A program made the translations under genes and the position numbers. The notes beneath the pieces were generated by a model, which did no database searches, was not told where the DNA came from, and saw only the letters and a list, made by a program, of their open reading frames with translations. DNA of 64,000 nucleotides from a virus, in the IMG/VR virus record IMGVR_UViG_3300028653_000016, positions 6,395 through 70,394 of that record; one strand, given 5' to 3'. Position 1 is the first letter of the stretch, and each line of letters starts with the position of its first letter. Shown piece after piece: positions 1-34,932 of this stretch.

Positions 1-109
1 CTACTTCTCCAGCCTCATTGGTAAGTCCTAGGATCACATACGGAAGAGATTCATTTTTAGGATAAATAGCTGTCTTCTCTGACCACTTCTGATATTCGTT
101 AGCTTGCAT
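1..109 (-). CDS. MazG-like nucleotide pyrophosphohydrolase, N-terminal part (runs off window)
   Basis: Manual translation MQANEYQKWSEKTAIYPKNESLPYVILGLTNEAGEV; the YQ..A..TA / LGL..EAGEV pattern is typical of MazG-like proteins. Confidence 0.7.
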   Translation of the reverse strand, partial: MQANEYQKWSEKTAIYPKNESLPYVILGLTNEAGEV

Positions 110-234
110 TATCTTGCCTTCTTAAATTTCTTACACTTACAAGTTACATTCCTGCATGTATAATCATATTCCCCATAATCCATCCAACTAAAATGAGAAT
201 TTTCTTTATGGCCGCATTTACATTTCTTTTCCAT
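109..234 (-). CDS. Cys/His microprotein (CxCGHxxxxH family, no DNL tail), 41 aa
   Basis: Not in ORF track; MEKKCKCGHKENSH...TCRNVTCKCKKF; GAGG RBS and promoter upstream. Confidence 0.7.
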   Translation of the reverse strand: MEKKCKCGHKENSHFSWMDYGEYDYTCRNVTCKCKKFKKAR

Positions 235-250
235 ATTTGTACCTCACTAA

Positions 251-279
251 AGTATAATACAAATCTCTCTAATTTGCAA
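251..279 (-). promoter_or_regulatory. sigma70-type promoter TTGCAA-N17-TATACT
   Basis: Overlaps the polymerase stop; matches the promoter consensus seen elsewhere in the window. Confidence 0.55.
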
Positions 280-2827
280 CCTGTTTTTGAGCATTGTTAA
301 CTACTTCAATCTTATGCATACGCCCCCAGCGAACCCCAATCTTGGCATCCACCGTTAGGGGTACTTGTATTCCTAAAATCCTACGAGTCATCTCCTCATG
401 CATGATCTGCAAAGTTTGCCGTATCTCTGTCTTGGGAACTTCTACATAGATAGCATCATGAACAAGATTTCTCAACTTACCATGTAGTCCTTCTTCTTGT
501 AACCGAAGAAATACTCTATTAGCTGCATTAGAAACATAGTCAGAGGCTGAACCCTGAATGGGAGCATTACAGGCTGCTTGCTCATCTTTGTAAGCAATCT
601 TATTATCAGGATTATTAATGGCCAACAAATGACGACGACGACCAAACCTACTCTGCACAAATAGATTCTTTCTAGCAAATTTCACAATCTCATATCGCCA
701 CTGTTTAGCTGTTGGGTATCGGGAGAAAAATGTATCTTTAATTGTCTGAGCATATTCTATAGTAACACCATGTTTCCTAGAAAGATCGTCTACGCCTTCT
801 CCGAACATGAGACCGAACACAATACTCTTAGCTTTCTTACGTTGTTCATCAGTAACTTGCTCTTGAGGAATTTTATTGGCCAATGATGCAATAAATCTGT
901 GAATATCTACCCCATCATTTAAGTCTCGAACAAGCTGAGGATCACCTGATAGAATTCCCCACCATCTGAACTCATTCTGCCCCTCATCTGCCTCAATCAG
1001 CACATTTCCTTTTTTGACTATGAACATGTTCTTAATAAGTTTCTCACTGCGAGGGAAGTTCTGAAAATTTGGGTCGGTACTAGAGAGCCTACCAGTGGTA
1101 GTCCCTGGTTGATGATACTTCGTATGCAAAATAGCATTACCATCAAGCCTCTCCTCAATACCAATAACATAAGTATTAAGCATCTTGGCAAGACCACGAT
1201 ACTCTACAATTTTCTGACAAATGGGATGCTTATCTGCTAACTGATTAAGTACATCCTCATCCGTAGAGGGTACTGGCTTAGTGACACTCTTAGTCATCTT
1301 GATAATGGGCAATTTTAAAGTTTCAAACAACAACTTTGACAATTGCTTAGGGGAATCCAGATTGATCTCTTCTGAGGTAACTTTAGCAATCTCTTCTTTA
1401 ATTCCCTTCTCCTCCTCAGTAAGTAGAGTCTGATAATGCTCTTTGGCTTTGCTCAATGCCTTTCTATCTATTTGGAATCCTTCAAATTCCATATGAGTAA
1501 GCGTATGATCAAGTGGCATTACAAGCTTTGATAGAAGATCAGCCATACCTTCTTGCTCAATCCTGGGGAGAAATACTTGCTTAAGCTCCAATGTCACATC
1601 GGCATCACAGGCTCCATAAGAGTAAAGAAGTGCTTCTGGCACCCTTGCATAATTTCGTTTCTCGTCATCTCCCATCTTGTTAGCTTTAAACCAATCATCC
1701 AATTCTTTCTTATGCTGCCCTCTACCTAAATACTGAAGAGACATATCCTCAAGATTATGTCCTCCCTTATCTGTCTCCCTGAGAAGGTAATGCATGAGTA
1801 ATGTATCGTACCCAGATTGTTTAACATTCCAGCCCATTTGTAAAAAGAACTTTTTATCGAACTTACCATTCTGATAAATAAACTTGATATTGCTTTCCAT
1901 GATCTGACGAAATTTCATCATGACGTACTGCTGATGCTCACCCCACCAAGGAGCATAAGTATCTTCCATCCATTTCTCTACCACTTCAACTTGTTTAATC
2001 TCCTCTTTACCTTTACGTCTTACTTTTTTGTCTTTAAGCACGATCTTCTCATGAGGAATACCAACCCATTTAGTCACAGGCAGAAGCACACCTGTACCAA
2101 CCTTCCAAGAGAAAGACGAGCAGATGATTTTATCCTTCTGCCAATCAAATCCAGTTGTTTCTAAGTCTACTGCTACTTCTTCTTGTTCCATAATGCGCTC
2201 AAAGAAACTTTCCAGCTTTTCTAGGGTATCAATTACAATATAATTGCCTTTATTAGCTTGAGTCATTTCAGGAACTTTAGATGATTCGATAGCTCGTCTA
2301 ATATCCTGGGATAGTACTTCTTCCTGATTAGGATTCCTCAATATGGCACCAACACTCAAAGTAGGCAATATCTTGCATTTAAACCTCTCAGACCACTGCT
2401 CAATACCCCTCAAATCCCCTACCTTTGGCTTTTTAAGGTCCAAAACTGCTGAAATAGCCTCTAACCCCATAGGTACTACAATATTAGGCTTAATCTCTTC
2501 TATTTCAGCTTTCAAATACTCGCTACAGGCTTGAATCTCCTCAAAATGGGCTGGCCTTACCCCTTCCACTGTACGAAGATTAGCCCTGCAGCGTGTTGCA
2601 TATGTATAGTATACCTGAGATCGATGAATTCCAAATTGAGCAAGCACTGAATCTAACTTCCTAGCTGCAGGACCTGAAAATGGTTTACCAGTGACATCAT
2701 CTTCAGCAGAGGGAGCATCAAAAACAAAGATGACCTTACTAGATAAATTTCCTTGTCCTGATAACGGAGGGCAATTTCTCAGCTCTGCCAAAGGACAATT
2801 TTTGCAGTCTTTATTACATTGATTCAC
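269..2827 (-). CDS. polA: Family A DNA polymerase with N-terminal family-4 uracil-DNA glycosylase-like domain and 3'-5' exonuclease
   Basis: CKNCPL...C Fe-S UDG start; exonuclease DLETTG and YGACDADVT; polymerase TTTGRLSS.DPNFQN, RKKAKSIVFGLMFG, VHDAI. Confidence 0.95.
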   Translation of the reverse strand: MNQCNKDCKNCPLAELRNCPPLSGQGNLSSKVIFVFDAPSAEDDVTGKPFSGPAARKLDSVLAQFGIHRSQVYYTYATRCRANLRTVEGVRPAHFEEIQACSEYLKAEIEEIKPNIVVPMGLEAISAVLDLKKPKVGDLRGIEQWSERFKCKILPTLSVGAILRNPNQEEVLSQDIRRAIESSKVPEMTQANKGNYIVIDTLEKLESFFERIMEQEEVAVDLETTGFDWQKDKIICSSFSWKVGTGVLLPVTKWVGIPHEKIVLKDKKVRRKGKEEIKQVEVVEKWMEDTYAPWWGEHQQYVMMKFRQIMESNIKFIYQNGKFDKKFFLQMGWNVKQSGYDTLLMHYLLRETDKGGHNLEDMSLQYLGRGQHKKELDDWFKANKMGDDEKRNYARVPEALLYSYGACDADVTLELKQVFLPRIEQEGMADLLSKLVMPLDHTLTHMEFEGFQIDRKALSKAKEHYQTLLTEEEKGIKEEIAKVTSEEINLDSPKQLSKLLFETLKLPIIKMTKSVTKPVPSTDEDVLNQLADKHPICQKIVEYRGLAKMLNTYVIGIEERLDGNAILHTKYHQPGTTTGRLSSTDPNFQNFPRSEKLIKNMFIVKKGNVLIEADEGQNEFRWWGILSGDPQLVRDLNDGVDIHRFIASLANKIPQEQVTDEQRKKAKSIVFGLMFGEGVDDLSRKHGVTIEYAQTIKDTFFSRYPTAKQWRYEIVKFARKNLFVQSRFGRRRHLLAINNPDNKIAYKDEQAACNAPIQGSASDYVSNAANRVFLRLQEEGLHGKLRNLVHDAIYVEVPKTEIRQTLQIMHEEMTRRILGIQVPLTVDAKIGVRWGRMHKIEVVNNAQKQVAN

Positions 2828-3038
2828 TTAACATCTCCAGATATTTTAAATTGTCTTTAGGAGCAAATTTAGTACAACCACATTCATTATGCCAAAAACT
2901 TAAACGCCAATTACAGCTACCCCAAAAGTTTACTTTAAAATAACCAAGCATTTCCCCATCTCTACCATAGGGTCCAATATGAGTATGAACAGAATGATTA
3001 CAAGTTCTACAAAAGTCTGCAATAGTATAAATAATCAC
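2814..3038 (-). CDS. Cys/His microprotein, DNLxYLE family
   Basis: CRTCNHSVHTH...CGCTKF..KDNLKYLE. Confidence 0.75.
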   Translation of the reverse strand: MIIYTIADFCRTCNHSVHTHIGPYGRDGEMLGYFKVNFWGSCNWRLSFWHNECGCTKFAPKDNLKYLEMLSESM

Positions 3039-3235
3039 TTGGAAGCCTTTTCATAACAGTATTCTAAATAATCCAAATTGCTATAAGCCTCAAATTGTTC
3101 ACAAGGGCATGTTTCATAGTCAGAATAATACCCACCATTATGACCACATTTATCTTTAATAGTATTCTCATCGAAATCATAATGATTATTATGAAAGCAA
3201 TTCCTGCAACGTAACCCTTCTTCTTTATAGCTCAC
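3035..3235 (-). CDS. Cys/His microprotein, DNLxYLE family
   Basis: CRNCFH...CPCEQF..YSNLDYLE; GTGA stop/start overlap. Confidence 0.75.
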   Translation of the reverse strand: MSYKEEGLRCRNCFHNNHYDFDENTIKDKCGHNGGYYSDYETCPCEQFEAYSNLDYLEYCYEKASK

Positions 3236-3405
3236 TTCTTATTCTCCAAACAATATTCCAAATACTTAAGATTATCCAACGGAACAAAATCTTTGCAACC
3301 ACATGACATACCATTATGCCTATACGTTAAACACATAGAATGGACACTATGCCAATGCCCACAAGTCCTGCAATCCCCTATGCATTCTTCATATCTATAA
3401 CTCAC
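3232..3405 (-). CDS. Cys/His microprotein, DNLxYLE family (57 aa, missed by ORF track)
   Basis: MSYRYEECIGDCRTCGHWHSVH...CGCKDFVPLDNLKYLEYCLENKK; GTGA overlaps at both ends. Confidence 0.75.
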   Translation of the reverse strand: MSYRYEECIGDCRTCGHWHSVHSMCLTYRHNGMSCGCKDFVPLDNLKYLEYCLENKK

Positions 3406-3788
3406 TTCTTTGCCTTTTTCTGTTTCGGGTACAGAATAGCCCCATTCGCATCCTGTAGGGAGAAATTGAAAGCTTTCAATACCTTAGCTACTTTCTTATC
3501 TTTAGACCATACAGTAGCAGCTAAGTACATAATCATTACCATAGAGGCTTGCCAAGGATCTGTAGGTACTTTAAGAGCGACATCATTAATTGCAATTGTA
3601 ATGAAGTTATTAGAAGGAACTTCAGGCTTTTGAGGCAAAGGACTAGCACTAGGAGTATTCTTAGCTAGAGCTTCAAGTATTCCTCCAAGGCCCTCCGTGT
3701 CCACTTTAGTACTTTGTAGCATACTTTGGACCAAATCAGCGGGTATGTGTGAAAGGGCCTTTGCCTTAAATGAGTTATTCTCTTCCAT
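3402..3788 (-). CDS. hypothetical protein
   Basis: 128 aa ORF in a tightly packed operon. Confidence 0.65.
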   Translation of the reverse strand: MEENNSFKAKALSHIPADLVQSMLQSTKVDTEGLGGILEALAKNTPSASPLPQKPEVPSNNFITIAINDVALKVPTDPWQASMVMIMYLAATVWSKDKKVAKVLKAFNFSLQDANGAILYPKQKKAKK

Positions 3789-3966
3789 TGCTAAGCTCCT
3801 CTAAATATCTAAGATTGTCTGCTATAAATTCTTTACAATTATCAGCCCAGGCCGTTCCGTTTATACCCCAGCCAATTCTCTTCCTACAAGCGGTAGATTT
3901 AACATTGCTATGTAATATATGATCATTATACATGTGACCACATGTACAAATAAAATCTCTTGTCAC
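3775..3966 (-). CDS. Cys/His microprotein, DNLxYLE family
   Basis: CTCGHMYNDH...CKEFIADNLRYLEE. Confidence 0.75.
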   Translation of the reverse strand: MTRDFICTCGHMYNDHILHSNVKSTACRKRIGWGINGTAWADNCKEFIADNLRYLEELSNGRE

Positions 3967-4211
3967 TTTATCTCCTCAAATCCAAAAATACATAGATCAG
4001 AGGGCAATCCCCACGTTCCTGCTTGAGTTATATAAGTAATCTTACCTAGAAAATTCCTACCTGTATACACTCCTAAAGTAGACTCATATTCATTTAACAA
4101 CACTTCATCATCAAGATGAAATACTCTATCTTTAACTGATCTCACTTCATATCTCTTTTTGCCAGATATGACCATTTCAAATGGTTCAGTCCAAATTTTT
4201 AGTTCTATCAT
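3963..4211 (-). CDS. DUF3850 / ASCH-like protein
   Basis: ELKIW.EPF..V.SGKK.YEVR..DR.F...D.V.L.EY pattern. Confidence 0.75.
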   Translation of the reverse strand: MIELKIWTEPFEMVISGKKRYEVRSVKDRVFHLDDEVLLNEYESTLGVYTGRNFLGKITYITQAGTWGLPSDLCIFGFEEIK

Positions 4212-4687
4212 GGCTTACCTAGCATAAGACAGTCGATGATTAGCGGGACTTTTGATATAAGCTGTTCCATCGTATTAATAGTTGGTGCAGTAAGTTTATC
4301 AATATCAGTTGCAACTTGGATAGCCGCCTCTCGTACATCAATCTGTTCATCTGCACTCGTACATACTGGGTCAACAAATACCCGTTGCACATTCCAGGCT
4401 TCATCCAATTTTTGAAGCTCTTCCCTCTTATAAAGAAAATATCCCTTCACACTGCTCGTTTCAACTACAGGAAGCTCTGGATAAATAGCATTCCCTGGAC
4501 ACTCAATAGAATAATAGTAATCTGTTCCGACCGCAACCATACTGTCGATTACGCCAATCGAATTAAGACTCTTAGGCAAAAATGCAGTATTACCAGAAGA
4601 GTTTATTTCAGCTGGTTTAATTTTACCCATTATTTTTTTGGCCAATTCTGGTGAAAGTCTATACATTAGTTTTTCCTGTATTTCCAA
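4208..4687 (-). CDS. hypothetical protein
   Basis: 159 aa ORF overlapping both neighbours. Confidence 0.6.
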   Translation of the reverse strand: MEIQEKLMYRLSPELAKKIMGKIKPAEINSSGNTAFLPKSLNSIGVIDSMVAVGTDYYYSIECPGNAIYPELPVVETSSVKGYFLYKREELQKLDEAWNVQRVFVDPVCTSADEQIDVREAAIQVATDIDKLTAPTINTMEQLISKVPLIIDCLMLGKP

Positions 4688-4917
4688 TATAATAGCATGA
4701 ATACTACCGATATAAGCATACCATATACACTACCTAAAATCAAGGGAAATTGATGGATCTGCAGCCCGAAGACCAAACCAAAGATATAGCCAACTATTTG
4801 AATATACCACATTCCTAAACTAACACCTCTTACATGCTTTACTCTATACGTCATTATCGGTTGAGGTAAAAGACAAAGCATGAATGCAATCTGGCTTATC
4901 ATTCCCCAAATATTCAT
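4666..4917 (-). CDS. PQ-loop / SemiSWEET-like 3-TM transporter
   Basis: LLPQ..TY..K...GVSL motif, three hydrophobic helices, 83 aa. Confidence 0.75.
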   Translation of the reverse strand: MNIWGMISQIAFMLCLLPQPIMTYRVKHVRGVSLGMWYIQIVGYIFGLVFGLQIHQFPLILGSVYGMLISVVFMLLYWKYRKN

Positions 4918-5468
4918 TAATCTTCCTTAAGCTTATTAATTATAACCTGCTTCAATTTTAAAGCTCGTTCTCTTGTAGAATCTGCTTTAGTCTTACTAAG
5001 GAACTTATTAACCCTTTTCTTAAGATCCTTTTCACCCTCTAACGTCCAGGTTCCTTTTAATTCTTCTTCAAGTTTATCTAGTAGTACTTTATCGTGGAGA
5101 GCATTTCTCCTTCTTCTCTCTTCAAGGGATTTTTTATCATGATCCTTTTTACAAATTCGTTGTAGATTGCTTGGGTCACAATCGATTCTTGCTATAAAAG
5201 TGTTCCAATCTTGGAAACCTTCTTCAACAGAAACTACCGGAATGATATGATCTACCCCTCCCATTAGCTTAGCGGGAACCCAGCTATGACAAACTTGGCA
5301 TTCAAATTCTACTCTATCTACCTTAGCTCTAGAGCCATCTTTGTTAAAATGAGGCACCTTTCTCTTACCTGCATTCATCACTTCAATTACCTTCGGTGAA
5401 CGGGCAAATGAACGTCTTATAGCTGACCTCACTACAGCATTCCAATTATAAGGAGGTTTGTTTTTCAT
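4917..5468 (-). CDS. HNH endonuclease
   Basis: CQVC...VDHIIPV...NLQRICKKDH. Confidence 0.8.
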   Translation of the reverse strand: MKNKPPYNWNAVVRSAIRRSFARSPKVIEVMNAGKRKVPHFNKDGSRAKVDRVEFECQVCHSWVPAKLMGGVDHIIPVVSVEEGFQDWNTFIARIDCDPSNLQRICKKDHDKKSLEERRRRNALHDKVLLDKLEEELKGTWTLEGEKDLKKRVNKFLSKTKADSTRERALKLKQVIINKLKED

Positions 5469-6237
5469 AGTTTTTTAAGTACTCCTCAGCTTTTTGTAAA
5501 ATCTCAATTGATTCTCTAGAATGACCTAACATCCAATTACAGGAAATACATAGTAATGACCTTAGAGCATTAGTTTTATGATTATGATCCACAACTAACC
5601 TTCTGCCATCTACTCTTTCATCAATACCACAAATGGCACATTTAAAATCTTGCTCTCCCAATAACTGGTCATGCATTTCCATAGTAATGCTATATTTGCG
5701 TCTAAAATTGTTTTCTCTTAATTCTATAGCTCTACACTTACCACATCTACTGCCATTTTCGATGCCAAATTTGGATCTTTCATGTCCATTTTTGCAGAAT
5801 TTTCCAGCTTTCCTCCCACGAGGTTGCGGATTTTCAACGAATCGACATGCTAGGCAAGCTCCTCTTTTGAGTCTCCCCATAATGGAAAGCTTGTGCCCAT
5901 GAACGCAAAATAATTTTTTCTTTCGTTTACTTACACATAATTTACAACGATTAGCCTTTCCCACTCGTCCTACAATATCCTTATCATGCCCTTTTTTGCA
6001 AAATCTAGGATCATATACACATTTTTTGCATCTACCACCTTTTTCATACCTGCCACAAATAAAAGTATCATGTCCATTAGGACAAAACTGTTTCCTTTGG
6101 CCACCTAATTTTAAAGGATGTGTTTCACGATAACATTTTCTGCAAACCCCATGCTTATCTCTGGCATTCAGAAGGAATGTATCATGCCCTCTTTTACAAA
6201 ATTGTTGTTTAGGTCTACCTACTTTTCGCTTTTTCAT
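5446..6237 (-). CDS. Endonuclease VII-family nuclease with 5 tandem C-x2-GH...C-x2-C zinc modules
   Basis: C-terminal KYSIT...CAIC...VDHNH.T...R.LLC..CN..LG; N-terminal FCxxGH repeats. Confidence 0.85.
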   Translation of the reverse strand: MKKRKVGRPKQQFCKRGHDTFLLNARDKHGVCRKCYRETHPLKLGGQRKQFCPNGHDTFICGRYEKGGRCKKCVYDPRFCKKGHDKDIVGRVGKANRCKLCVSKRKKKLFCVHGHKLSIMGRLKRGACLACRFVENPQPRGRKAGKFCKNGHERSKFGIENGSRCGKCRAIELRENNFRRKYSITMEMHDQLLGEQDFKCAICGIDERVDGRRLVVDHNHKTNALRSLLCISCNWMLGHSRESIEILQKAEEYLKNYEKQTSL

Positions 6238-6275
6238 ATATGGTTATCTCCTTGTTTGAGTACATTGTGTATGTT

Positions 6276-6308
6276 CATATACACAATTTTATTATACTTT
6301 TTACAAGG
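6276..6308 (-). promoter_or_regulatory. conserved motif CTTGTAAAAAGTATAATAAAATTGTGTATAT, copy 1 (probable phage promoter/operator)
   Basis: Near-identical copies at about 14835, 34546 and 60998. Confidence 0.6.
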
Positions 6309-6465
6309 ATTCTTTTGTAGGAAAATGCTCCTTAAGGAACTCTCTACGAACTTTATAATACTCTTGGTTACATTTCTTGCAATTACCACTCTTAGTACGA
6401 CCTACCTCAGCTATAATATGCCCTTTGGAACAAGTTTCTTTAGCTGGAAAACCATGTTTAGACAT
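6301..6465 (-). CDS. mini single-Zn-module protein, copy 1 (54 aa)
   Basis: MSKHGFPAKETCSKGHIIAEVGRTKSGNCKKCNQEYYKVRREFLKEHFPTKESL; two paralogs in the window. Confidence 0.8.
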   Translation of the reverse strand: MSKHGFPAKETCSKGHIIAEVGRTKSGNCKKCNQEYYKVRREFLKEHFPTKESL

Positions 6466-7084
6466 TATCTACCACCTTAGAAATTCCATTTTCTTTAATA
6501 ATTTCAAATGTTTTAGAAGCACTTCTAGTAATAGTCTCACTATGAGAAATTAAAATAAGCTGCAAATTGAGCTTCTCACAAAGAATTTTAATGAATTCAG
6601 CTACTTTCTCTTGATCCTTTACCGACACATGTTTAAATGCCTCATCAGCAATAATAACCTTGGATAACTGGGGTTGCCACTTTGTTAAAAGGGCCACCCG
6701 TAACACGAAAGAAACTGCATCAGCTACTCCACCACCCATACTGTTTAAAATATCAAAAGTTTGACCATTCTGAGCATCCAATATACCCATCTCAAGTGTC
6801 GGTTGGTTATTCTTATTTGTAAGTTGCATTTTAAACTCAAGGTTAGGATCTTTAATTGTTCTAAGTGCATCAGTCACAATTCCACTAATCTTATCTAGTA
6901 CTTGCAAACGAGTCTCATCCGAAAGTGACTGGAGGAACAAGGATGCCTTAGCTAAATGATCTTCATTAACTGTTAGCTCTATAACTTTTTGATCTAAAGA
7001 AGCCTTTCGCTCTTTTAGACTCTCAAGTTGGCCAACCTTACGGTTGAACTCTTGTTGAATCTGTTTAAATTGCTCGAATATCAC
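6458..7084 (-). CDS. SbcC/Rad50-like ATPase, C-terminal half
   Basis: Coiled coil, signature-like SMGGG, Walker B IIADE, H-loop LISHS; GTG 7084 is a likelier start than 7117. Confidence 0.8.
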   Translation of the reverse strand: MIFEQFKQIQQEFNRKVGQLESLKERKASLDQKVIELTVNEDHLAKASLFLQSLSDETRLQVLDKISGIVTDALRTIKDPNLEFKMQLTNKNNQPTLEMGILDAQNGQTFDILNSMGGGVADAVSFVLRVALLTKWQPQLSKVIIADEAFKHVSVKDQEKVAEFIKILCEKLNLQLILISHSETITRSASKTFEIIKENGISKVVDNV

Positions 7085-7319
7085 TGAGTACCTTATCCAA
7101 TTGTTCTTGCAATGCACTCACTTCAGCCTGGATAGCTGCTTCCTCATTTTTAAGTGTTTGCTCAATAGCTTCAGGTGCAATACCTAGCTCTTTAGCTTCT
7201 AACAGCAGCTTCTCTTTTTCTTGTTCAAGCCCTTGAAGCTTTGTTTGGTTAGCTACCCGTAAATTATTAAGCTGTTCACCTTTAGATTTTAAAGCTAGTA
7301 GATCATTTTCAATACTCAT
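7065..7319 (-). CDS. small coiled-coil protein of the SbcCD cluster
   Basis: 84 aa heptad-rich ORF between SbcD and the SbcC C-half. Confidence 0.7.
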   Translation of the reverse strand: MSIENDLLALKSKGEQLNNLRVANQTKLQGLEQEKEKLLLEAKELGIAPEAIEQTLKNEEAAIQAEVSALQEQLDKVLSDIRAI

Positions 7320-8236
7320 CGTAACTCCTCCTTAGCCTGTTCCACTTTCTCTAAACACAAATCCAATATCTCTTTAAGCATACCACTTTTCTTTCCCTCT
7401 GTCAAGACCACTTGAGATACATCCACGTTTTCAAAACTTGCACTCTCCAAGCTATCTACAAAGTTTTGGAGATTCATTTCTGTACTCTTTAACTCTGCAG
7501 CACTAGCTAAATCAAATATTTCGCTGGCTGGCAATGAACTCTTTAGCTGATGAGGAGTAATCATACCTGTCACTGTATCTAAAATGAACACTTGCGGTTG
7601 CCATTGTTCATTTATAGCCCATCGACTGATAGAGCCTGGATTAACAAATGCTGTAATTCCTTCAAAATGAGAAAAAGCCTTATGATAATGACCAAAAACA
7701 AGAACTTGAGCATTAGTCTTTATCTGAGATGGTAACACAGCATCAAATGGGACTTGATGGGGAATGCAAAAATTATGGCTGCACACAATCTTATAATAAT
7801 CCTTAAACTTATCGTCAAAGAAATAATCCCCCTGTTTTGGATCTAAATAGGCATGAATACCTCGGAGCACAATTTTCTCTTTCTCAAATACCAATTCATC
7901 TAATCGCTCAATAGCTTGCGATTCCATCAGTACACCTAGCCCATTATTCTTATCTGAGGTAACGTAGGCATTAATATCGTGGTTGCCGATCAGACTGAAC
8001 AATGAGCAAGGCAAAGTTTTACACCAAGCTACCACATCGTTAACAAGTTGGAATGAAACCCTAGTATTATCAAAGAAATCACCCAAACTCACCATCATAT
8101 CTACTTTGTTAGCTGCAGCAATATCTCGAATTTCCCCAAGCTCCTGAAATTGGCTCTCATAATGATTGTCCAGCCTCCACTTGGGACGATCAGACAAACT
8201 TCGAAGATGAAGATCACCTATTAGAAGAATTTTCAT
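7316..8236 (-). CDS. sbcD: SbcD/Mre11-like metallophosphoesterase nuclease
   Basis: GDLH, GDFFD, GNHD, GHYH and NPGS motifs. Confidence 0.88.
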   Translation of the reverse strand: MKILLIGDLHLRSLSDRPKWRLDNHYESQFQELGEIRDIAAANKVDMMVSLGDFFDNTRVSFQLVNDVVAWCKTLPCSLFSLIGNHDINAYVTSDKNNGLGVLMESQAIERLDELVFEKEKIVLRGIHAYLDPKQGDYFFDDKFKDYYKIVCSHNFCIPHQVPFDAVLPSQIKTNAQVLVFGHYHKAFSHFEGITAFVNPGSISRWAINEQWQPQVFILDTVTGMITPHQLKSSLPASEIFDLASAAELKSTEMNLQNFVDSLESASFENVDVSQVVLTEGKKSGMLKEILDLCLEKVEQAKEELR

Positions 8237-8421
8237 CTATACACCTTTTCACAAGAACATTCCTCATAATCATAAGCATTATATTCTAGAAGATTCTTAT
8301 GGCACCCACCACTATTTCTTTTGTCGCATATACTATAATGATACTGAGTTTTTTTAACTAAATCATCATAAGTCAGATGAAAAGTAAGCTCATGGCCACA
8401 TTTACAAAGTTTATTCATCAA
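8233..8421 (-). CDS. Cys/His microprotein (CxCGH family, no terminal DNL tail)
   Basis: CKCGHELTFH...C...CSCEK. Confidence 0.65.
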   Translation of the reverse strand: MMNKLCKCGHELTFHLTYDDLVKKTQYHYSICDKRNSGGCHKNLLEYNAYDYEECSCEKVYR

Positions 8422-8776
8422 CTTTCTCTTCCTTCTTCACCAAATGAACATATACTTTCAAATCTTTAGCATTAGCCTTATTCAACATATCCTTGCTTCC
8501 CTTACTCAAACCATCCCAAACTAAAATAAGTGCTTCTGCATCTGCAGCCATTAAACTGTTTCTTATAGGTCCAGCCTTCTTACCAAATGTGTCCCAATCA
8601 GGACAATAGAATCTAACAGGAATTCTATTCTTATTTGCCCAAGCTTCTCCTAATGAATCAGGTCCCATAGCTCCACCTGAAAAAACCTCTGTAATATCAA
8701 AGCCGCTAAGCTTAATAGCCTTCTCAAGCTCTAATGGATCTGTAATTGTTCTACTACCAGCAATGATTACACGCAT
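8411..8776 (-). CDS. DUF2493 / YspA-like SLOG protein
   Basis: RVIIAGSR...SGGAMGPD..GE.WA...GKKAGPIRN..MA...WDG.SKGS. Confidence 0.85.
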   Translation of the reverse strand: MRVIIAGSRTITDPLELEKAIKLSGFDITEVFSGGAMGPDSLGEAWANKNRIPVRFYCPDWDTFGKKAGPIRNSLMAADAEALILVWDGLSKGSKDMLNKANAKDLKVYVHLVKKEEKVDE

Positions 8777-8958
8777 AAATCTTCGAGGTACTTTAAATTG
8801 TCTCTTTTAAAATCATTACAAGAACACTTCTTAATTGAGTAAGTCCAATCTCCATAGCAAGCATTTAATAAAATATTACCTTCTTCATCGAGCCAACCAA
8901 TATCATGCTTTTCAGCTTCATGACCACATTTACAATAATCAATTACTTTTATGCACAT
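8767..8958 (-). CDS. Cys/His microprotein, DNLxYLE family
   Basis: CKCGHEAEKH...CSCNDFKRDNLKYLED. Confidence 0.75.
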   Translation of the reverse strand: MCIKVIDYCKCGHEAEKHDIGWLDEEGNILLNACYGDWTYSIKKCSCNDFKRDNLKYLEDLCV

Positions 8959-9139
8959 ATTGTTCCTCTAAATATTTTAAATTATCTGGTGTATATTTTT
9001 TACATTTATGATCTGTAGTATAATGTGTTTTTCTTAAATCTACTCGCAATCCTTCAAAGCATTCCCCGAGAGCCCAAAAACTATTATCACGGCTATGCAT
9101 TTCTTTTATATGCCCACAAACACAAGGATAACTATTCAT
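8939..9139 (-). CDS. Cys/His microprotein, DNLxYLE family
   Basis: CVCGHIKEMH...CKKYTPDNLKYLEE. Confidence 0.75.
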   Translation of the reverse strand: MNSYPCVCGHIKEMHSRDNSFWALGECFEGLRVDLRKTHYTTDHKCKKYTPDNLKYLEEQYVHKSN

Positions 9140-9297
9140 ACCCTACTCTCTAAATAAATAAGATTATCATTACTTTCCCAATTATTGCATCTACAATTGG
9201 TATGCTCACAGATTCTTTTCAAATCTTTAAGAATGAGAAAAGAAGTAACGTGCCAATGCTTGCAATTTCTACAACGCCATTTATTAAAGTCTACCAT
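9136..9297 (-). CDS. Cys/His microprotein, DNLxYLE family (53 aa, missed by ORF track)
   Basis: MVDFNKWRCRNCKHWH...CEHTNCRCNNWESNDNLIYLESRV; fills the gap exactly with stop/start overlaps. Confidence 0.7.
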   Translation of the reverse strand: MVDFNKWRCRNCKHWHVTSFLILKDLKRICEHTNCRCNNWESNDNLIYLESRV

Positions 9298-10547
9298 TAT
9301 AAATTAACCGTTTCCTGATTACAAACTGGGCATGTACCATTTAATCTAAGCATTTCACTATACTGTTCCTTAGCCTCTTGATACTGCTGCTCAACTCGTC
9401 CCAACTCTTCGGTTTTACCTAATAGTTCCTTTTGATTCTTACCTATCCTAACTGATAAATCCTTAATCTTCTTTAAGTCAGACGCTTTCTCAGCCAATAC
9501 AGGTATAACAGAAATATCAACAGGTGTCAATAGATTATTTATCCTGCTTTGTGCAGAGTACATTCCCTGCCAAGCATTGTACTTGTCATTTAACATAATC
9601 AGTTTCTTTACTCTATTCACCTTTGGCTCTAATTGGCTAATTGAATCAAGGTCTATTTGGGTTAAAAGAACTTGTAGTTTAGTTTGATGCTCAAACGTAT
9701 ACTGATGATTTACAAATTTGCTATGAAATGTTCTAATTTTTCCAATCTTATCCACTCTTTGGGCTAATTGATCTATATTACTAAGGTCAATATTGACTAG
9801 AAGGGCCTCCTTTTCTGTTTCAGCTACCCAGTTAGCCCTTAAGATAGATACACGCTCAAATAGGCTCTGGATTCGCTGCAATCGGGCTTCCTGAACACTC
9901 AAAGAACTCAAACGAGCCTCTATATCACTTATCTGGCTACTGAAAGTCTCAATTGGAGCTAATTTATCAATTTGACTATTTAAATCAACTACTTCTAACT
10001 CTTTAGAACCCTTTTCCGCTGTAGTTTGTCTTTTATCTTTATTAAGTTCTCTTATTGCATGATCCAGGAAAGTTGCACCTGAAAGCTTACCCAAAATACG
10101 AGCACGAAGACTGGGAACTGAGCTTAACAGGAACAGGTTGTCATGCTGCAGGGCTACATTGAGGTTTAGGGACTCTGCAGCATCAATCTGTACCTCATGA
10201 ATCTTTAAGGCTTGCTGAATCGCTTCAGGTACACTTGTTCCAAATGATTCAAAGACCTGTGGTTCTTGATTAGGGAGTATAAGGGTATATTTATTAACCT
10301 TATCTCCCTTTTCACGCAACACAGTTATACCTGTACTAGTCTCAAGAGTTATCTTACAATACTTAGCCCCAAATCGAACCCAACTTTTATCCCACGGCGA
10401 ACCCATTAAGATGAACTGAAGGGCTCGACTGATCGACGATTTTCCAGCGTTACTTAATCCAACAATTACGTTCAAACCTTTGTCAAGATTAAATACAGAT
10501 TTCTCGTGTGATTGGAAATCTTCTAGAGTTAAAGTTTTAAGAAACAT
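9297..10547 (-). CDS. SbcC/Rad50-like ATPase, N-terminal half ending at the Zn hook
   Basis: LEDFQSH, Walker A GLSNAGKS, Q-loop, coiled coil, terminal CPVC. Confidence 0.85.
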   Translation of the reverse strand: MFLKTLTLEDFQSHEKSVFNLDKGLNVIVGLSNAGKSSISRALQFILMGSPWDKSWVRFGAKYCKITLETSTGITVLREKGDKVNKYTLILPNQEPQVFESFGTSVPEAIQQALKIHEVQIDAAESLNLNVALQHDNLFLLSSVPSLRARILGKLSGATFLDHAIRELNKDKRQTTAEKGSKELEVVDLNSQIDKLAPIETFSSQISDIEARLSSLSVQEARLQRIQSLFERVSILRANWVAETEKEALLVNIDLSNIDQLAQRVDKIGKIRTFHSKFVNHQYTFEHQTKLQVLLTQIDLDSISQLEPKVNRVKKLIMLNDKYNAWQGMYSAQSRINNLLTPVDISVIPVLAEKASDLKKIKDLSVRIGKNQKELLGKTEELGRVEQQYQEAKEQYSEMLRLNGTCPVCNQETVNL

Positions 10548-14796: not shown

Positions 14797-14832
14797 ATAA
14801 TTCTCTCCTTGTATAAGTCCATCGTGTATTAT

Positions 14833-14866
14833 CATATATACACAATTTTATTATACTTTTACAAGG
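14833..14866 (-). promoter_or_regulatory. conserved motif CTTGTAAAAGTATAATAAAATTGTGTATAT, copy 2
   Basis: Matches copies 1, 3 and 4. Confidence 0.6.
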
Positions 14867-20587: not shown

Positions 20588-20782
20588 TTACCTCAATTCA
20601 AATGACAAACAAGAGCATCTTCCAGCCCTGCACCAAACATCTGGTGCTAATTGACTATGGGGAGGACAATAATCTAAAAATTCTCTTGGTAAAGCTCTAA
20701 TAGCACAATGATACTTAAGCAAATGCCCACACACAGAACATTTTCGAGTCATAGCTATTCTTTCTAGCATCTCTCTATTCAT
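20588..20782 (-). CDS. Cys/His microprotein (CxxCGH family, no tail)
   Basis: CSVCGHLLKYH...C...CSCLSF; ATG 20782 overlaps the upstream stop. Confidence 0.65.
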   Translation of the reverse strand: MNREMLERIAMTRKCSVCGHLLKYHCAIRALPREFLDYCPPHSQLAPDVWCRAGRCSCLSFELR

Positions 20783-20982
20783 GCAATCTTCTCCATAGCC
20801 TTCATTTCCAACCATTCTAAATTAGACATAGGCTTATATATGCCACAACATTTCCAATTAGCTTTTTCGTCAGCATAACAACCCCAACAAGTATCTTCAA
20901 AATCCCAATTCTCAAATCTACTAAGAAACGTTCTTGTATGATGAGATGCCTTACTATGGCTGCAGATACAAGGGCGATCCAT
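20779..20982 (-). CDS. Cys/His microprotein, DNLxYLE family
   Basis: CICSHSKASHH...CWGC...SNLEWLE. Confidence 0.75.
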   Translation of the reverse strand: MDRPCICSHSKASHHTRTFLSRFENWDFEDTCWGCYADEKANWKCCGIYKPMSNLEWLEMKAMEKIA

Positions 20983-22185: not shown

Positions 22186-22335
22186 CTATTCTCTAAAAAT
22201 AAACATCTCACATTTTTTGTCACAAGGTATAGTTAGAGTTCCTAACCCACAACAGCTTCCATTTGATGAATTATGTGCTATTCTATTGTGAACACATGTT
22301 TGACAAGCATCATAATCTCTTTGATTATCACTCAT
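22186..22335 (-). CDS. Cys/His microprotein (49 aa, missed by ORF track)
   Basis: CQTCVHNRIAH...CC...C...CEMF; AAGGAG RBS. Confidence 0.6.
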   Translation of the reverse strand: MSDNQRDYDACQTCVHNRIAHNSSNGSCCGLGTLTIPCDKKCEMFIFRE

Positions 22336-25818: not shown

Positions 25819-25847
25819 AGTATAACATACTTATCTAGTCTTGTCAA
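25819..25847 (-). promoter_or_regulatory. sigma70 promoter TTGACA-N17-TATACT, leaderless
   Basis: Perfect -35, extended -10, ATG 5 nt downstream of the -10. Confidence 0.8.
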
Positions 25848-27013
25848 GGGATATTTTTCACCTCTAGGTAAGGAATAAAGGGTAGACACATCAATGTTGT
25901 CAAACCTGAAATAATAATCAACCCATTATACCCAAATAAAGCAAAACACTTTGCCCCTACTATATTTGAAAAGAAAGAAGCACAATTAACAAGTGAGCAT
26001 AACAAAGCATAAGTTGTTGCTTCCGTTTTTTCTGGGCAAGTCATGGCCATGAGATTTAGCATAGTTAAATGAACAAATTGCGTAGCGATCCCAAAAATAA
26101 TAGCATACCATAAAATCGTAGTAGGAGTTAAATACAAGTAAGCAAAAGTTCCAATTGCACTTATAAGTGTTCCATAGTATAACCAACGTTTCATATCAAT
26201 ATTTTTACTCACTTTAAAGTATACTATAGCCCCCACAATTCCACAAGCAGATCCAATAGTATCTAACCAACCGATATACACTTTCGACATGTGCAGACCA
26301 TTTAACATTTTATCTAGCAAAGGAGTTCCAAAAGAAGGACTAAACCAAAGGAAAAATAGAAATAAACTGCAAAGAAGAATCTGTTTATTTTTTAATTTTG
26401 CTAAAAAATCCTTAATTATAGGCCCAACTGCCTTTTTAGTCTTTTCAGATTTCACTTCAGGGTATCTAAGAGCCATTATAGCGATTAGAATAGGGAAAAT
26501 AGCGAGAATTATATAAGCAAGATGGTAAGAAGCCTTTTCTGCGATATAACCTCCAGAAACGCCTGTAAGAACGCTTCCAACGCCTAAAGCAGCCCATGTC
26601 ACAGATTGAAAGCGGCCAGTTGTACCATCTTTATTACCTGCTTCAATTCCCATGCCATTTACAGCTACATTTCCACCTGCTTCCCCAATAGATCCAACAA
26701 TCATTAAGCCAATTAAAACAGACAAGGAAATAAAAGGAGATACACCAATAACAAGAAATGCGAGAGTGCCTAAAATGGCAAATAAAACAACATAGCTTTT
26801 CCTACGGTAGCCAAAGATACTTATAGAATCACTAAGAATCCCCCACACTGGTTTTATCATCCAAGGTATATTGGCTAAAGCCCCAAGCATCATGATTTGG
26901 GATACCGAAATCCCAAGGGTCTCCCTTAAAAAACAAAAAAGAGGCAGAGAAGCAAGCCCTCCAATCCCCTGATTAAAAAATACGAGAATAGCTAAGACGT
27001 ATAGAAAATTCAT
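25844..27013 (-). CDS. MFS transporter, folate-biopterin (BT1/FBT) family-like
   Basis: PWMIKPVWGILSD...FGYRRKSY; CP...EAT.YALL.S..N; about 12 TM segments. Confidence 0.85.
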   Translation of the reverse strand: MNFLYVLAILVFFNQGIGGLASLPLFCFLRETLGISVSQIMMLGALANIPWMIKPVWGILSDSISIFGYRRKSYVVLFAILGTLAFLVIGVSPFISLSVLIGLMIVGSIGEAGGNVAVNGMGIEAGNKDGTTGRFQSVTWAALGVGSVLTGVSGGYIAEKASYHLAYIILAIFPILIAIMALRYPEVKSEKTKKAVGPIIKDFLAKLKNKQILLCSLFLFFLWFSPSFGTPLLDKMLNGLHMSKVYIGWLDTIGSACGIVGAIVYFKVSKNIDMKRWLYYGTLISAIGTFAYLYLTPTTILWYAIIFGIATQFVHLTMLNLMAMTCPEKTEATTYALLCSLVNCASFFSNIVGAKCFALFGYNGLIIISGLTTLMCLPFIPYLEVKNIP

Positions 27014-27201
27014 TTACTCATTTCTTCTAAATACTTTAAATTATCACCTTTAAAATTATGATAATTTGTTTCACGATCTCTATGAGTTTGCTCAAAACAT
27101 TCCTCACACCAAAAATCTACATTAAAATATCGCTTATGAATATTATCGTGATGCTTAGATAACAAATGACCGCAGAGACAAGGGTATTCTAAATTAGTCA
27201 T
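27010..27201 (-). CDS. Cys/His microprotein, DNLxYLE family
   Basis: CLCGHLLSKHH...CEEC...FKGDNLKYLEE. Confidence 0.75.
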   Translation of the reverse strand: MTNLEYPCLCGHLLSKHHDNIHKRYFNVDFWCEECFEQTHRDRETNYHNFKGDNLKYLEEMSK

Positions 27202-28735: not shown

Positions 28736-28921
28736 TTAATAGCCTCTAATTATCTGAAGATTGACATACTCACGACTTTCAATGTACCTAGCTTTATACT
28801 GCCAACAGTCACAAGCTTTCTGATTCAATTCACACCATAGAGGAGCAAATTTGTTATCATGAGCGTGATTGGCTCTTGGATGCCCACATTCACACGAATT
28901 ATCATTTATGAGAAAGCTCAT
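28736..28921 (-). CDS. Cys/His microprotein (CxCGH family, no tail)
   Basis: CECGHPRANH...C....CDCWQY. Confidence 0.7.
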   Translation of the reverse strand: MSFLINDNSCECGHPRANHAHDNKFAPLWCELNQKACDCWQYKARYIESREYVNLQIIRGY

Positions 28922-31386: not shown

Positions 31387-31415
31387 AGTCTATCAGATAA
31401 ATAACAATCTGTCAA
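31387..31415 (-). promoter_or_regulatory. sigma70 promoter TTGACA-N17-TAGACT, leaderless
   Basis: ATG 5 nt after the -10; no SD. Confidence 0.78.
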
Positions 31416-31510
31416 GAGTTATTTTAAAATAACTACAATTGTATATAATTTCAGTCTAGATTATATGCTAAAGTATATAATCCTATCCTATTTTGATATG
31501 TTTTAGCATA

Positions 31511-31810
31511 TCATTTCTTAGGGAAATTTGGATCACTGCAGCAGCCATCACAACCGTGAATACCTCTGCTATGCCCTATATAATGAGGACAGGAATATTC
31601 AGGACCGTCTGACATTCTCTGGAAAGGCCAATTCCAAGGCTTATCTTTCTTCTTGGATTTCTTTATTAATCCCTTATCCTCAGCTTTTTCCTCAAGTAAA
31701 GACAAATTATCCGATTCAAACGTATGATTAGCATTCTCTTGGCAATACATGCAAATAGGCCATGCCCCAATTAAATGCTTACTCTTGTAATGGCCACATT
31801 TACAAATCAC
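31511..31810 (-). CDS. Cys/His microprotein with internal DNLSLLE and an extra C-terminal Cys/His domain
   Basis: CKCGHYKSKH...CMYC...DNLSLLEE...CPH.IGH...HGCDGCC. Confidence 0.7.
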   Translation of the reverse strand: MICKCGHYKSKHLIGAWPICMYCQENANHTFESDNLSLLEEKAEDKGLIKKSKKKDKPWNWPFQRMSDGPEYSCPHYIGHSRGIHGCDGCCSDPNFPKK

Positions 31811-32073
31811 TTTCTCTTCTCCTTAGCTTTCTCTTCCAAATATCTCAAATTGTCTCTCTTGAAAGATTCACAATTGCATTGGGTACATTTCCATTCTTCC
31901 TGTGTACCTTCCGAAAGGTACTTTTTCCAAAATTTCTCTCTATCTACCATGCTAGATTCTTTATACCCTTCAAGCTGCTTATCCAGCCTATCCCAAGCCT
32001 TTTTACCCATCTCAGTATGCTGAGTATTTGAATGGCCACAAATACAAAAAGATTTTTCAATCTCTGGATTCAC
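31807..32073 (-). CDS. Cys/His microprotein, DNLxYLE family
   Basis: CICGHSNTQH...CTQCNCESFKRDNLRYLEE. Confidence 0.75.
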   Translation of the reverse strand: MNPEIEKSFCICGHSNTQHTEMGKKAWDRLDKQLEGYKESSMVDREKFWKKYLSEGTQEEWKCTQCNCESFKRDNLRYLEEKAKEKRK

Positions 32074-32257
32074 TTAGTTGCTCCAAGTATTTAAGATTAT
32101 CTGGCACAAATTCATGGTACATGTAATCCACATTTATTAATTTAGGATGATCCTCCGTTGATAAAATATTCCAACATGAGGTACAATACATATCACTAGC
32201 ATTATCACACCTATGATATCTTCCTGTATGCCCACATATGCAAGGGAAATTATTCAA
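32057..32257 (-). CDS. Cys/His microprotein, DNLxYLE family
   Basis: CICGHTGRYH...CTSC...FVPDNLKYLEQ. Confidence 0.75.
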   Translation of the reverse strand: MNNFPCICGHTGRYHRCDNASDMYCTSCWNILSTEDHPKLINVDYMYHEFVPDNLKYLEQLSESRD

Positions 32258-33123
32258 AGGACACCTCTCCTTACACTTTTCTTAATATGATCTTTATACC
32301 AATAAGGACGATAATTAGTATAGTGAAAGCATTTAAGTCTATCTTCCTCTTTACTCAAATCAAAGTTATTACAACCAATAATATGATCAAATTGCCATTT
32401 ACCTTTTCCTTGTCCATGGTTATTCCAATTCATGCCTTCTGTGAATTGAGACTCTATATGTTTTATAAATTCTGGAATTGTGCATCCCAAATAAGGCTCT
32501 AATAATTTAGACCTAGAATTTCTGTTTACAGCTTTGCCCAAGTTAGCTATTAATCTCAATCTCCAGTACATGTGCTCTTCGTAATTCTCCGTTTTAGCTG
32601 AGGTTCTTCTATTTTGAGATTGCTTTTTTACAGTAGACCATTCACAATTGACAAGTGTATAATTACCATCATTGTCTATTCTGTTAATACTTGTATTCTT
32701 TTCTCCAAATTCTTTAGCATGTTTAAGATACAAGGCATACATATCATCTCTAAAATTTTCAAATTCCATCCATCTTTCACAAACAGTAATTCCTCTACCG
32801 CCATAATTATAATAGTCTTTATCTGAAATTGTTAGACAACGTTTCTTCATCATATGCCAAATTGTATAAAATCTCGTTGTACTCATGCCATGGGTTTTAT
32901 GTTTTTTACCATTTTTCGTGGATATTTCACTTCGTAAACAACCACAAGATCTTGTTATTCCTTGTTTTAAGCTACTAGCAGTAACATTCCGAACAGTTCC
33001 ACAAGTACATCTGCAAACCCACAAAATAATATTCCTTATACGACTATCTCCTTGTTTAAGAACAGTCCATCTACTAAAAGTTTGACCAGTAAGATCTTCA
33101 AAATTATATGAATGCCTACTCAT
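32254..33123 (-). CDS. free-standing HNH-type homing endonuclease (two nuclease-like domains)
   Basis: DLTG..F.RWTV..C.C.CG; YGGRGI.VCERW; RIDNDGNY; C-terminal GMNW.NHG...W.FDHI...CFHY.N. Confidence 0.8.
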   Translation of the reverse strand: MSRHSYNFEDLTGQTFSRWTVLKQGDSRIRNIILWVCRCTCGTVRNVTASSLKQGITRSCGCLRSEISTKNGKKHKTHGMSTTRFYTIWHMMKKRCLTISDKDYYNYGGRGITVCERWMEFENFRDDMYALYLKHAKEFGEKNTSINRIDNDGNYTLVNCEWSTVKKQSQNRRTSAKTENYEEHMYWRLRLIANLGKAVNRNSRSKLLEPYLGCTIPEFIKHIESQFTEGMNWNNHGQGKGKWQFDHIIGCNNFDLSKEEDRLKCFHYTNYRPYWYKDHIKKSVRRGVL

Positions 33124-34508: not shown

Positions 34509-34545
34509 ATTATTTTCCTTATAATTAGCATAATCTATGGTATCT

Positions 34546-34579
34546 ATATATGCACAATTTTATTATACTTTTTACAAGG
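34546..34579 (-). promoter_or_regulatory. conserved motif CTTGTAAAAAGTATAATAAAATTGTGCATATAT, copy 3
   Basis: Matches copies 1, 2 and 4. Confidence 0.6.
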
Positions 34580-34733
34580 ATTCTTCCTTTGGAAAATGCT
34601 CCTTAATGAATTCTCTACGAACTTTATAATAATCACTTTGGCATTTCTTACAGTTACCAGATTCTGTATGTCCTACCTCTGCTATAACATGACCTTTTGC
34701 ACAAGTAGGTTTAACTTTAGGACCTGACTTCAT
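34572..34733 (-). CDS. mini single-Zn-module protein, copy 3 (53 aa)
   Basis: MKSGPKVKPTCAKGHVIAEVGHTESGNCKKCQSDYYKVRREFIKEHFPKEESL; GGAGG RBS. Confidence 0.8.
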   Translation of the reverse strand: MKSGPKVKPTCAKGHVIAEVGHTESGNCKKCQSDYYKVRREFIKEHFPKEESL

Positions 34734-34932
34734 TGTTATCTACCTCCTTATCATTAGCCTTCCATTCCAAATACTCCAAATTAGTCATAGAATTATACAC
34801 ACCATTACAATAGAAAAATGGTTCCCTACAATCCTCACAGAATTCAACAGTTTCCACCCCATGATCAGGATTAAAAACCCAATCATACCTATTATGCTTC
34901 TCGGCTTCATGCCCACAATAACAAGGTAACAT
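34717..34932 (-). CDS. Cys/His microprotein, DNLxYLE family
   Basis: MLPCYCGHEAEKH...CEDC...TNLEYLE; start moved to 34932 because the upstream sequence is a tRNA. Confidence 0.72.
   Translation of the reverse strand: MLPCYCGHEAEKHNRYDWVFNPDHGVETVEFCEDCREPFFYCNGVYNSMTNLEYLEWKANDKEVDNNEVRS

Follow-up and report, generated by a model that had tools for sequence, protein, structure and literature searches.

A family of small Cys/His-rich proteins with a portable C-terminal tail, expanded in a clade of large uncultured phages

The stretch of DNA considered in the current analysis (the window, 64,000 nucleotides) comprises bases 6395-70394 of a virus record of 70,394 bases in IMG/VR (IMGVR_UViG_3300028653_000016). 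CheckV assigns a completeness of 37% to this record, from which the full phage is estimated at roughly 190 kilobases (kb). All the genes in the first 42 kb of the window are encoded on the - strand, and dispersed among them are small open reading frames (ORFs) that combine a variable, Cys/His-rich head with a conserved C-terminal tail of the form DNLxYLE. The initial annotation of this stretch had counted about 19 copies. The copies are real but their scale was put too low, as related genomes hold 46-68 of them. Expansion within one clade of uncultured phages has brought the family to about 50-70 copies per genome of roughly 190 kb, and roughly one gene in six of these large phages is given to it.

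The scaffold of the family consists of seven to eight Cys/His residues (CxCGHx4H...C...CxC) that frame a segment of 22-80 residues, nearly all of it different between paralogues, and is read as a putative zinc-binding pattern. All the 19 ORFs listed initially are present on the - strand and are referred to below, where a name is needed, by the letter m and the start coordinate. A profile hidden Markov model (HMM) was built from 136 family sequences, all of them from outside this genome, and used to search the 546 ORFs of the record; the E-values given for the members refer to this leave-out profile. It supports the membership of 17 of the 19 ORFs (E<=1e-3), leaves the one at 17660 as a borderline case and places the one at 22186 at noise level.

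The first member, m109 (109-234, 41 amino acids (aa), E 1.1e-5), has no tail. It is followed by m2814 (2814-3038, 74 aa, tail DNLKYLE, E 2.3e-12), which overlaps the start of polA by 14 nucleotides (nt), and by m3035 (3035-3235, 66 aa, tail SNLDYLE, E 2.6e-7), m3232 (3232-3405, 57 aa, tail DNLKYLE, E 2.2e-8) and m3775 (3775-3966, 63 aa, tail DNLRYLE, E 2.7e-17). Further along are found the tail-less m8233 (8233-8421, 62 aa, E 5.3e-5), m8767 (8767-8958, 63 aa, tail DNLKYLE, E 1.7e-15), the structure of which has been modelled, m8939 (8939-9139, 66 aa, tail DNLKYLE, E 1.6e-17) and m9136 (9136-9297, 53 aa, E 1.7e-5), which has the head CRNCKHWH and the tail DNLIYLE. The borderline member (17660-17857, 65 aa, E 0.015) carries a CRCLH head and the tail variant DNEILLE. 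A tail-less member (20588-20815, 75 aa, E 6e-4) is followed by one with the tail SNLEWLE (20779-20982, 67 aa, E 1.8e-11). The doubtful member (22186-22335, 49 aa, tail-less) has the Cys/His pattern only; it matches the head pattern given below, and its E-value of 0.19 compares with 0.16 for the best ORF on the wrong strand. The member at 27010-27201 (63 aa, tail DNLKYLE, E 2.9e-14) has a second ligand block of the form CxxC...YH, and that at 28736-28921 (61 aa, E 4.6e-7) a degenerate tail, ARYIE. The remaining members are those at 31511-31810 (99 aa, E 2.3e-8), in which the tail DNLSLLE is followed by an extra Cys/His-rich extension, m31807 (31807-32073, 88 aa, tail DNLRYLE, E 1.1e-12), 32057-32257 (66 aa, tail DNLKYLE, E 2.7e-18) and 34717-34971 (84 aa, or 71 aa from an internal start, tail TNLEYLE, E 1.5e-10).

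A pattern search for the head (C.{1,2}C.H.{3,5}H) in the six frames of the window returns 17 matches, all of which lie in small ORFs of the - strand between 193 and 34923, with none on the + strand or past 35 kb. The corresponding search for the tail returns 14 matches, 13 of them in small - strand ORFs (2835-34785) and the remaining one a chance site inside an 808-aa ORF. The fourteen tails of the initial annotation are thus accounted for by these 13 and the DNEILLE variant of the borderline member. Its further description of members wedged by start/stop overlaps into neighbouring genes is also borne out, with overlaps of 1-20 nt. One extra member lies upstream of the window (571-795 of the record). 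The ORF at 16015-16221 (profile E 0.007) was considered as a member and rejected, being an ordinary CxxC...CxxC ribbon. A single tRNA-Met gene (34944-35018, - strand) is situated directly upstream of the member at 34717-34971.

The genes interleaved with the members encode PolA, a YspA/SLOG protein, a DUF3850 protein, a Cdc48/VAT-like AAA+ ATPase, an exonuclease, endonuclease VII/HNH proteins, RecA, DnaB, a helicase-nuclease, a BT1/MFS transporter, a ligase and a second helicase; neighbours of SbcCD type carry that label from the initial annotation only. The members thus sit in the replication and accessory part of the genome. Contigs from public sequencing runs, which included X9 and X15 of the small-share runs X5-X24, were aligned to positions 2700-9400 of the window, a region that the RNA-library runs cover in part. 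RNA-library contigs cover three members with 0-4 mismatches, among them m8767 and, by an X9 contig over 9107-9312 with 0 mismatches, m9136. This cover is a weak hint of expression.

Three related genomes were compared with the record of the window. They comprise G001 (180 kb, 94% complete), G002 (a fragment of 120 kb) and G003 (192 kb with terminal repeats, 100% complete), which are syntenic with the window and encode core proteins that are 27-82% identical to its own (polA 57-70%). ORF-level searches with the HMM identify 17 members in the window's own record, 46 in G001, 68 in G002 and 57 in G003, all on the coding strand, and these take up 5.0%, 5.7%, 12.6% and 6.6% of the DNA respectively. 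In a greedy set of non-overlapping genes they account for 50 of the 332 genes of G003 and 60 of the 245 of G002, and across the four genomes for 28-41% of the ORFs of up to 100 aa. None is found among the 44 genes of the 90-140 kb bins of G003, which hold the structural genes; the copies are confined to the non-structural parts of the genome, those of replication and small ORFs.

When 1.84 billion cluster representatives are searched with a profile built from the 19 window ORFs, 1425 proteins are identified at E<=1e-3. Among the best 150 of these, which are mostly 55-85 aa long, the tail is present in 147 and the head in 148. The consensus is FPCxCGHxxxxH...C...CxCxxFxPDNLKYLExxY, in which C, C, H, L and E do not vary and H, C, C, D, N, Y and L reach a conservation of at least 90%. 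The earlier statement that no described family has this architecture agrees with searches of Pfam, PHROG, GenBank phages and the literature, none of which gives a consistent match, and the family HMM maps consistently to no known domain of Pfam-A or PHROG over 143 members. None of ten window members scores above the Pfam-A cut-off and none of the 143 members reaches it, the best-supported family (FAM221) matching four of them. In PHROG, phrog_2078 matches five of the 143 (best E 1e-5) and every other family two or fewer. The SWIM profile is not among the 25 families listed of the 44 Pfam families for these members, those at the bottom of the list matching one member each. The SWIM zinc finger has the motif CxCxnCxH, and the ligand order of the present family (CxC.H...H...C...CxC) is unlike its CxC...CxH. 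The Pfam searches reveal no nuclease or recombinase motif in the members.

The sole match in a sequence search of the PDB is bL31 (E 0.9-1.4 over 30 residues), which is not significant, and a tblastn search with one canonical member (P0007) against 50,697 GenBank phage records returns nothing at E<=0.1. No longer fused relatives of 159-2000 aa are found at E<=1e-3, although this is weak evidence. Matches in the ESM Atlas are to unnamed viral clusters only, and ten clusters that were looked up are all metagenomic and either described as hypothetical protein or without a name. Neither DNLKYLE nor CxCGH is found in a search of 8.1 million papers and 0.36 million preprints, and the one relevant paper that broader word searches bring up is PMC7824862. 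A back-translated PDNLKYLE pattern identifies 21 loci in IMG/VR, 12 of which hold members (2-13 each). Among the nine viral loci without a member, eight are internal matches in unrelated proteins, and the match in L001 lies eight residues from the C-terminal end. The same pattern finds 74 loci in a set of one genome per prokaryote species, and in a profile screen none of the 74 holds a member. From this comparison (0/74 against 12/21) the family looks specific to viruses, and to phages among them.

A subfamily conserved in G001, G002 and G003 has the form FPCxCGHSKxxH..G..IGDEWCNG...CxCExYVPDNLKYLEQC..KKGKGK with Lys-rich ends, and examples are seen at L016 2702-2956, L017 179-418, L010 2871-3092 and L014 124-321. 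In L014, L016 and L017, where both are seen, it adjoins an overlapping second member. Within a family that is otherwise fluid, this subfamily represents stable orthologues. A protein of 423 aa (P0084), encoded on a 40.5-kb metagenome contig, comprises five tandem head-like CxCGH...H modules without a DNLxYLE tail, and represents the head in array form.

The tail has been examined in 156 copies from the four genomes. Each position is encoded by several synonymous codons, with all six used for Leu and both for Asp, Asn, Tyr and Glu, which indicates selection on the peptide. The initial annotation had reached this view from the codons within the window, and its picture of divergent heads joined to a tail conserved as a peptide is upheld by this codon spread and by paralogue identities of 29-47%, essentially those of the scaffold, which also confirm its statement that the sequence between the ligands is unrelated. 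Members without the tail stop right after CxCxxF. Two such tail-less orthologues (L048 3976-4191 and L049 9719-9943) are 45% identical, and the polA proteins of the phages that encode them are 96% and 66% identical to that of the window. In the natural tandem fusions P0001 and P0005 the tail is found in mid-chain.

On the coding strands of the four genomes the tail motif is found in 17 ORFs outside the family, compared with a single match in 2443 ORFs of the wrong strand. One of the 17 is m9136 and another is probably due to chance. The 15 that remain are headless proteins of 58-212 aa that form four or more orthologous groups and have the motif at a distance of 7-20 residues from the C-terminal end. 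In one of them a phrog_3972 domain (E 3.3e-31, residues 9-112) precedes the tail, which occupies residues 118-124. In the window itself a conserved protein of 210 aa outside the family (35693-36325, - strand) has the tail variant GTLQYLE 12 residues from its end (...GTLQYLESLSAAKEEEVTI), and its orthologues end in NNLEYLE in G001 and DTLQYLE in G003. Because the tail is missing from conserved orthologues, lies in mid-chain in the fusions and occurs on proteins without the head, it is separable from the head; it is a portable module that is also carried by unrelated phage proteins. The proposal that variable head and constant tail are modules is thus supported by the tail-less orthologues, by these 15 or so headless carriers and by a head swap at m3775.

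The swap was observed in L047, which together with L048 is a short contig of a very close relative (polA 95% and 96% identical respectively in protein, 88-90% in DNA). At the m3775 slot of L047 the upstream flank and the start codon are near-identical to those of the window and the tail and the start of the downstream gene are identical, while the roughly 140 nt that separate the codons for CxCGH from the tail cannot be aligned and differ in length. An X15 contig repeats the head replacement with a joint at 3826->3963. Whole genes also come and go. In both L047 and L048 m109 is missing, and in L047 the polymerase directly abuts the MazG-like gene; m3035 and m3232 are likewise missing from L047, and an X15 contig has a joint within this region (3240->3633). 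An X9 contig joins 8236 to 8426 with five other letters between, skipping 189 nt that are exactly m8233, a presence/absence difference of gene size. The turnover of the repertoire therefore consists of gene-sized gains and losses together with replacement of heads between the CxCGH and tail segments.

Over larger distances little more than the scaffold remains, the best matches of window members in the other genomes being 29-47% identical (for m9136, 46% in G001 and 44% in G002). The exception is m31807, for which alone a clear orthologue is seen in G001 (29306, 64% identity over 84 aa). A reverse transcriptase (PF00078) is absent from all four records, the complete G003 included, in a search in which control genomes were positive, and a diversity-generating retroelement is thereby excluded; as regards the target of such an element, the head at the m3775 slot also differs in length. 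One clean pair of orthologues, m2814 and its counterpart in L047 (88% identical), gives a ratio of nonsynonymous to synonymous substitution rates (dN/dS) of 0.29, compared with 0.08 for polA and 0.13 for two neighbours. By this ratio m2814 is under purifying selection that is weaker than on core genes.

Two further rearrangements have been noted in these contigs. The gene of 128 aa at 3402-3788 (- strand) is a mosaic with respect to L047, the DNA of its N-terminal half being more than 90% identical and that of the C-terminal half strongly diverged, with a breakpoint that adjoins the m3232/m3035 indel. L048 has a gene of 210 aa (1768-2483) inserted just downstream of polA, and a stretch of 68 nt that occurs once in the record of the window (6636-6703 of the record) occurs twice in L048, flanking this insert. 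The inserted gene may be a mobile gene.

The head has three ligands in CxC.H and four to five more Cys/His in the core in 195 of 254 members, a count of seven to eight that suits two metal sites. The net charge of the 254 members spans -19 to +12 (median 0), with 102 of them basic, 81 acidic and 71 close to neutral, and this spread argues against one shared nucleic-acid ligand. In AlphaFold2 models of two different members the C-terminal tail helix is the only clear secondary structure (residues 54-62 in m8767, 47-58 in the other). VIA-align places RING/U-box chains in nine of nine rows for one model and in 23 of 24 for the other, at Z 2.0-2.8. A head with a RING-like cross-brace is accordingly to be taken as a lead suggested by modelling and not as a result.

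These are real genes of a phage-specific, unannotated family, and we would give about even chances to the reading in which variable heads bind targets, the tail binds a shared partner and the set as a whole serves takeover of the host or counter-defence. The targets and partners named in the initial annotation, host defence proteins for the heads and a protease, RNA polymerase or the AAA+ ATPase for the tail, are candidates only. The head would serve as a small two-zinc scaffold for binding proteins, with variable loops that recognise different targets. The tail would be an amphipathic interaction helix, with an L-x-x-L-x-x-x-Y face spaced like a coiled-coil heptad and with N, L, L and E invariant or nearly so in its motif, that links all the tail-bearing proteins to one common partner. 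Such a partner may be another tail, through homo- or hetero-oligomerisation, or a hub protein of the phage or the host, and the whole set would form an accessory repertoire for host takeover or counter-defence that is expressed together with the replication genes. A narrower version is possible but doubtful, in which the 50-70 RING-like two-zinc heads and the unrelated domains would share PDNLxYLE as a helix tag leading to a single hub, an arrangement that would be unprecedented in bacterial viruses. It includes tail-to-tail assemblies or, for example, the Cdc48-like unfoldase of the phage as the hub, and new specificities acquired by head swaps through recombination between the segments coding for CxCGH and for the tail, and it would make the system a phage equivalent of the adaptor libraries found in large eukaryotic viruses.

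The AAA+ ATPase (11331-12737, - strand; Pfam AAA E 8.7e-20) has VAT/Cdc48/p97 as its best matches in the PDB (E 1e-37) and resembles the D2 ring of VAT. It is a single-ring protein with an uncharacterised N-domain of about 195 aa, and is a candidate only for the docking partner of the tail. A co-fold of its N-domain (residues 1-200, alignment of four rows) with m8767 (alignment of 143 rows) gave a best score of 0.25 against a mark of 0.32, which counts neither for nor against docking. The orthologue in G001 (36198-38669) has 823 aa compared with about 467 in the window, a difference that points to a large insertion, for example an intein.

Several points weigh against a set of target-binding heads with a shared tail partner. 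Both structure models are of middling confidence (predicted local distance difference test, pLDDT, 69.5 for m8767 and 72.0 for the other), and the modelled tail helix is contiguous with the zinc module and may also pack on it. Foldseek finds no match at E<=1e-3 in the PDB or in BFVD, where the best E is 0.31, and the Z-scores of VIA-align are low. The purifying selection is seen in a single pair of orthologues of 73 codons, the RNA-library contigs may derive from DNA with both RNA runs belonging to one study, and the rapid gain and loss would be expected of selfish or dispensable genes no less than of an arms race. Host takeover is proposed by analogy only.

If the tail were no more than the terminal helix of a single compact zinc fold, the family could consist of specific transcription factors or structural DNA/RNA-binding proteins. 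The helix begins only about six residues past the last CxC knuckle and is predicted better than any other element, 80-85% of the members have the tail, and the conserved hydrophobic residues (FP, F/Y, L..YL) could build one mini-core; the Lys-rich ends of some subfamilies and the zinc ribbons of phage G (PMC7824862) point the same way. Tail-less members are nevertheless conserved orthologues, the fusions P0001 and P0005 hold the tail in mid-chain, the same motif terminates about 15 proteins that have no zinc head, and 81 of the 254 members are acidic within a range of net charge from -19 to +12, and we regard this explanation as unlikely. An origin as selfish or near-neutral mini-genes with little function for the phage, spread and lost by recombination and possibly aided by the neighbouring homing-type nucleases, appears improbable. 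It would account for the exact gene-sized presence and absence between near-identical phages, for the endonuclease VII and HNH-type genes in the same region and for the scant orthology between related genomes, but not readily for ligands and tail kept as a peptide across 1425 clusters, for the dN/dS of 0.29 or for the 5-13% of the genome retained for members in each relative examined, and the members have no nuclease or recombinase motif of their own.

Encapsulin cargo-loading peptides and the targeting sequence of the T4 internal proteins are short address tags of the kind that would be needed if the tail served to bring small proteins into the procapsid, from which they would be injected together with the DNA. 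The architecture alone, in which cargo-like heads and unrelated domains share a short C-terminal motif with an invariant Glu, favours such a role; the members all lie in regions of replication genes and small ORFs and none in the structural module, and such a role is very improbable. Least probable of all is that the tail is conserved as DNA and not as a peptide, to provide a ribosome-binding site for an overlapping downstream gene or a recombination linker. Several downstream genes do start in or just past the tail, YLE(E) frequently reads TTAGAGGA, GAG accounts for 42% of the Glu codons in the tails compared with 32% in the background, and the m3775 head swap broke exactly at the tail. Every tail position nevertheless uses several synonymous codons in the 156 tails, and the motif is kept where there is no overlapping gene and on unrelated proteins. 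The excess of GAG leaves room for a secondary role in ribosome binding, not for an explanation at the DNA level.

An expansion of roughly 35 copies of a zinc ribbon, termed unprecedented, has been reported in Bacillus phage G (Iyer et al. 2021, PMC7824862), and the authors proposed that these ribbons are specific transcription factors or structural DNA-binding proteins. Both cases concern a large phage with dozens of paralogous small zinc-type proteins of unassigned function. The profile of the present family gives no match at E<=1 in the phage G record (NC_023719, 497 kb) and hhalign gives a probability of 0.26% against phage G gp32, so that the two represent an analogous phenomenon in unrelated families. 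Phage G gp32 is a ribbon of 117 aa with the pattern CxxC...CxxC that has neither the CxCGH head nor the DNLxYLE tail. The share of genes also differs, with 50 of 332 here and about 35 of 694 annotated features in phage G, and a portable tail such as the one described here is not mentioned for phage G in the available part of PMC7824862. The family described here represents a paralogue expansion of small zinc-type proteins in large phages, and there is a reasonable chance that it goes beyond this.

The putative head resembles RING/U-box domains, especially the RINGs of TRIM proteins with their dimerising helices, in that about 50 residues hold seven to eight Cys/His ligands and a helix comes next. 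It differs from them in ligand spacing (CxC.H here, Cx2C...CxH in RING), the VIA-align Z-scores lie below the level of a shared fold, and the Pfam RING family zf-C3HC4_2 matches one of 143 members (E 0.016). To our knowledge, no ubiquitin system is to be expected in a bacterial host. The ankyrin-PRANC/F-box proteins of poxviruses, the cargo peptides of encapsulins and the MIT-MIM interactions of Vps4 are all systems in which many heads or cargos with one short C-terminal motif are directed to one hub. The likeness to these is an analogy of design only and implies no relation in sequence or structure. T4-like phages have hyperplastic regions of small early ORFs, and the genomes considered here are similar to them in having small accessory genes between core replication genes and in their rapid gain and loss, but differ in that 28-41% of the ORFs of up to 100 aa belong to one family and are not unrelated ORFans.

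Should this reading hold, one unannotated family would make up about 15-24% of the genes in a clade of large phages of soil and peat and would explain a large part of the genomic 'dark matter' of the clade. A tiny metal scaffold with replaceable loops and a portable tag is predicted to constitute a natural library of binders, which could address many host targets at once, defence systems included, and may be of use as a compact scaffold for protein engineering. The family adds a further case to the one previous report of a zinc-ribbon expansion in a jumbo phage, and suggests that expansions of zinc proteins are a recurrent strategy rather than an oddity.

The window also encodes two unusual auxiliary genes on the - strand, a methionine aminopeptidase-type gene of the M24 family (36391-37155, E 2e-35) and a transporter of the BT1/MFS folate-biopterin type (25844-27013, E 4e-38). 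Homing-type nucleases are represented by an endonuclease VII (14047-14835, - strand, E 1e-25) and by an HNH protein of phrog_374 (32254-33123, - strand, E 2e-56). The ORF at 5446-6237 (- strand) shows by eye repeated FCxxGH...CxxC modules that are unlike the head of the small proteins described above.

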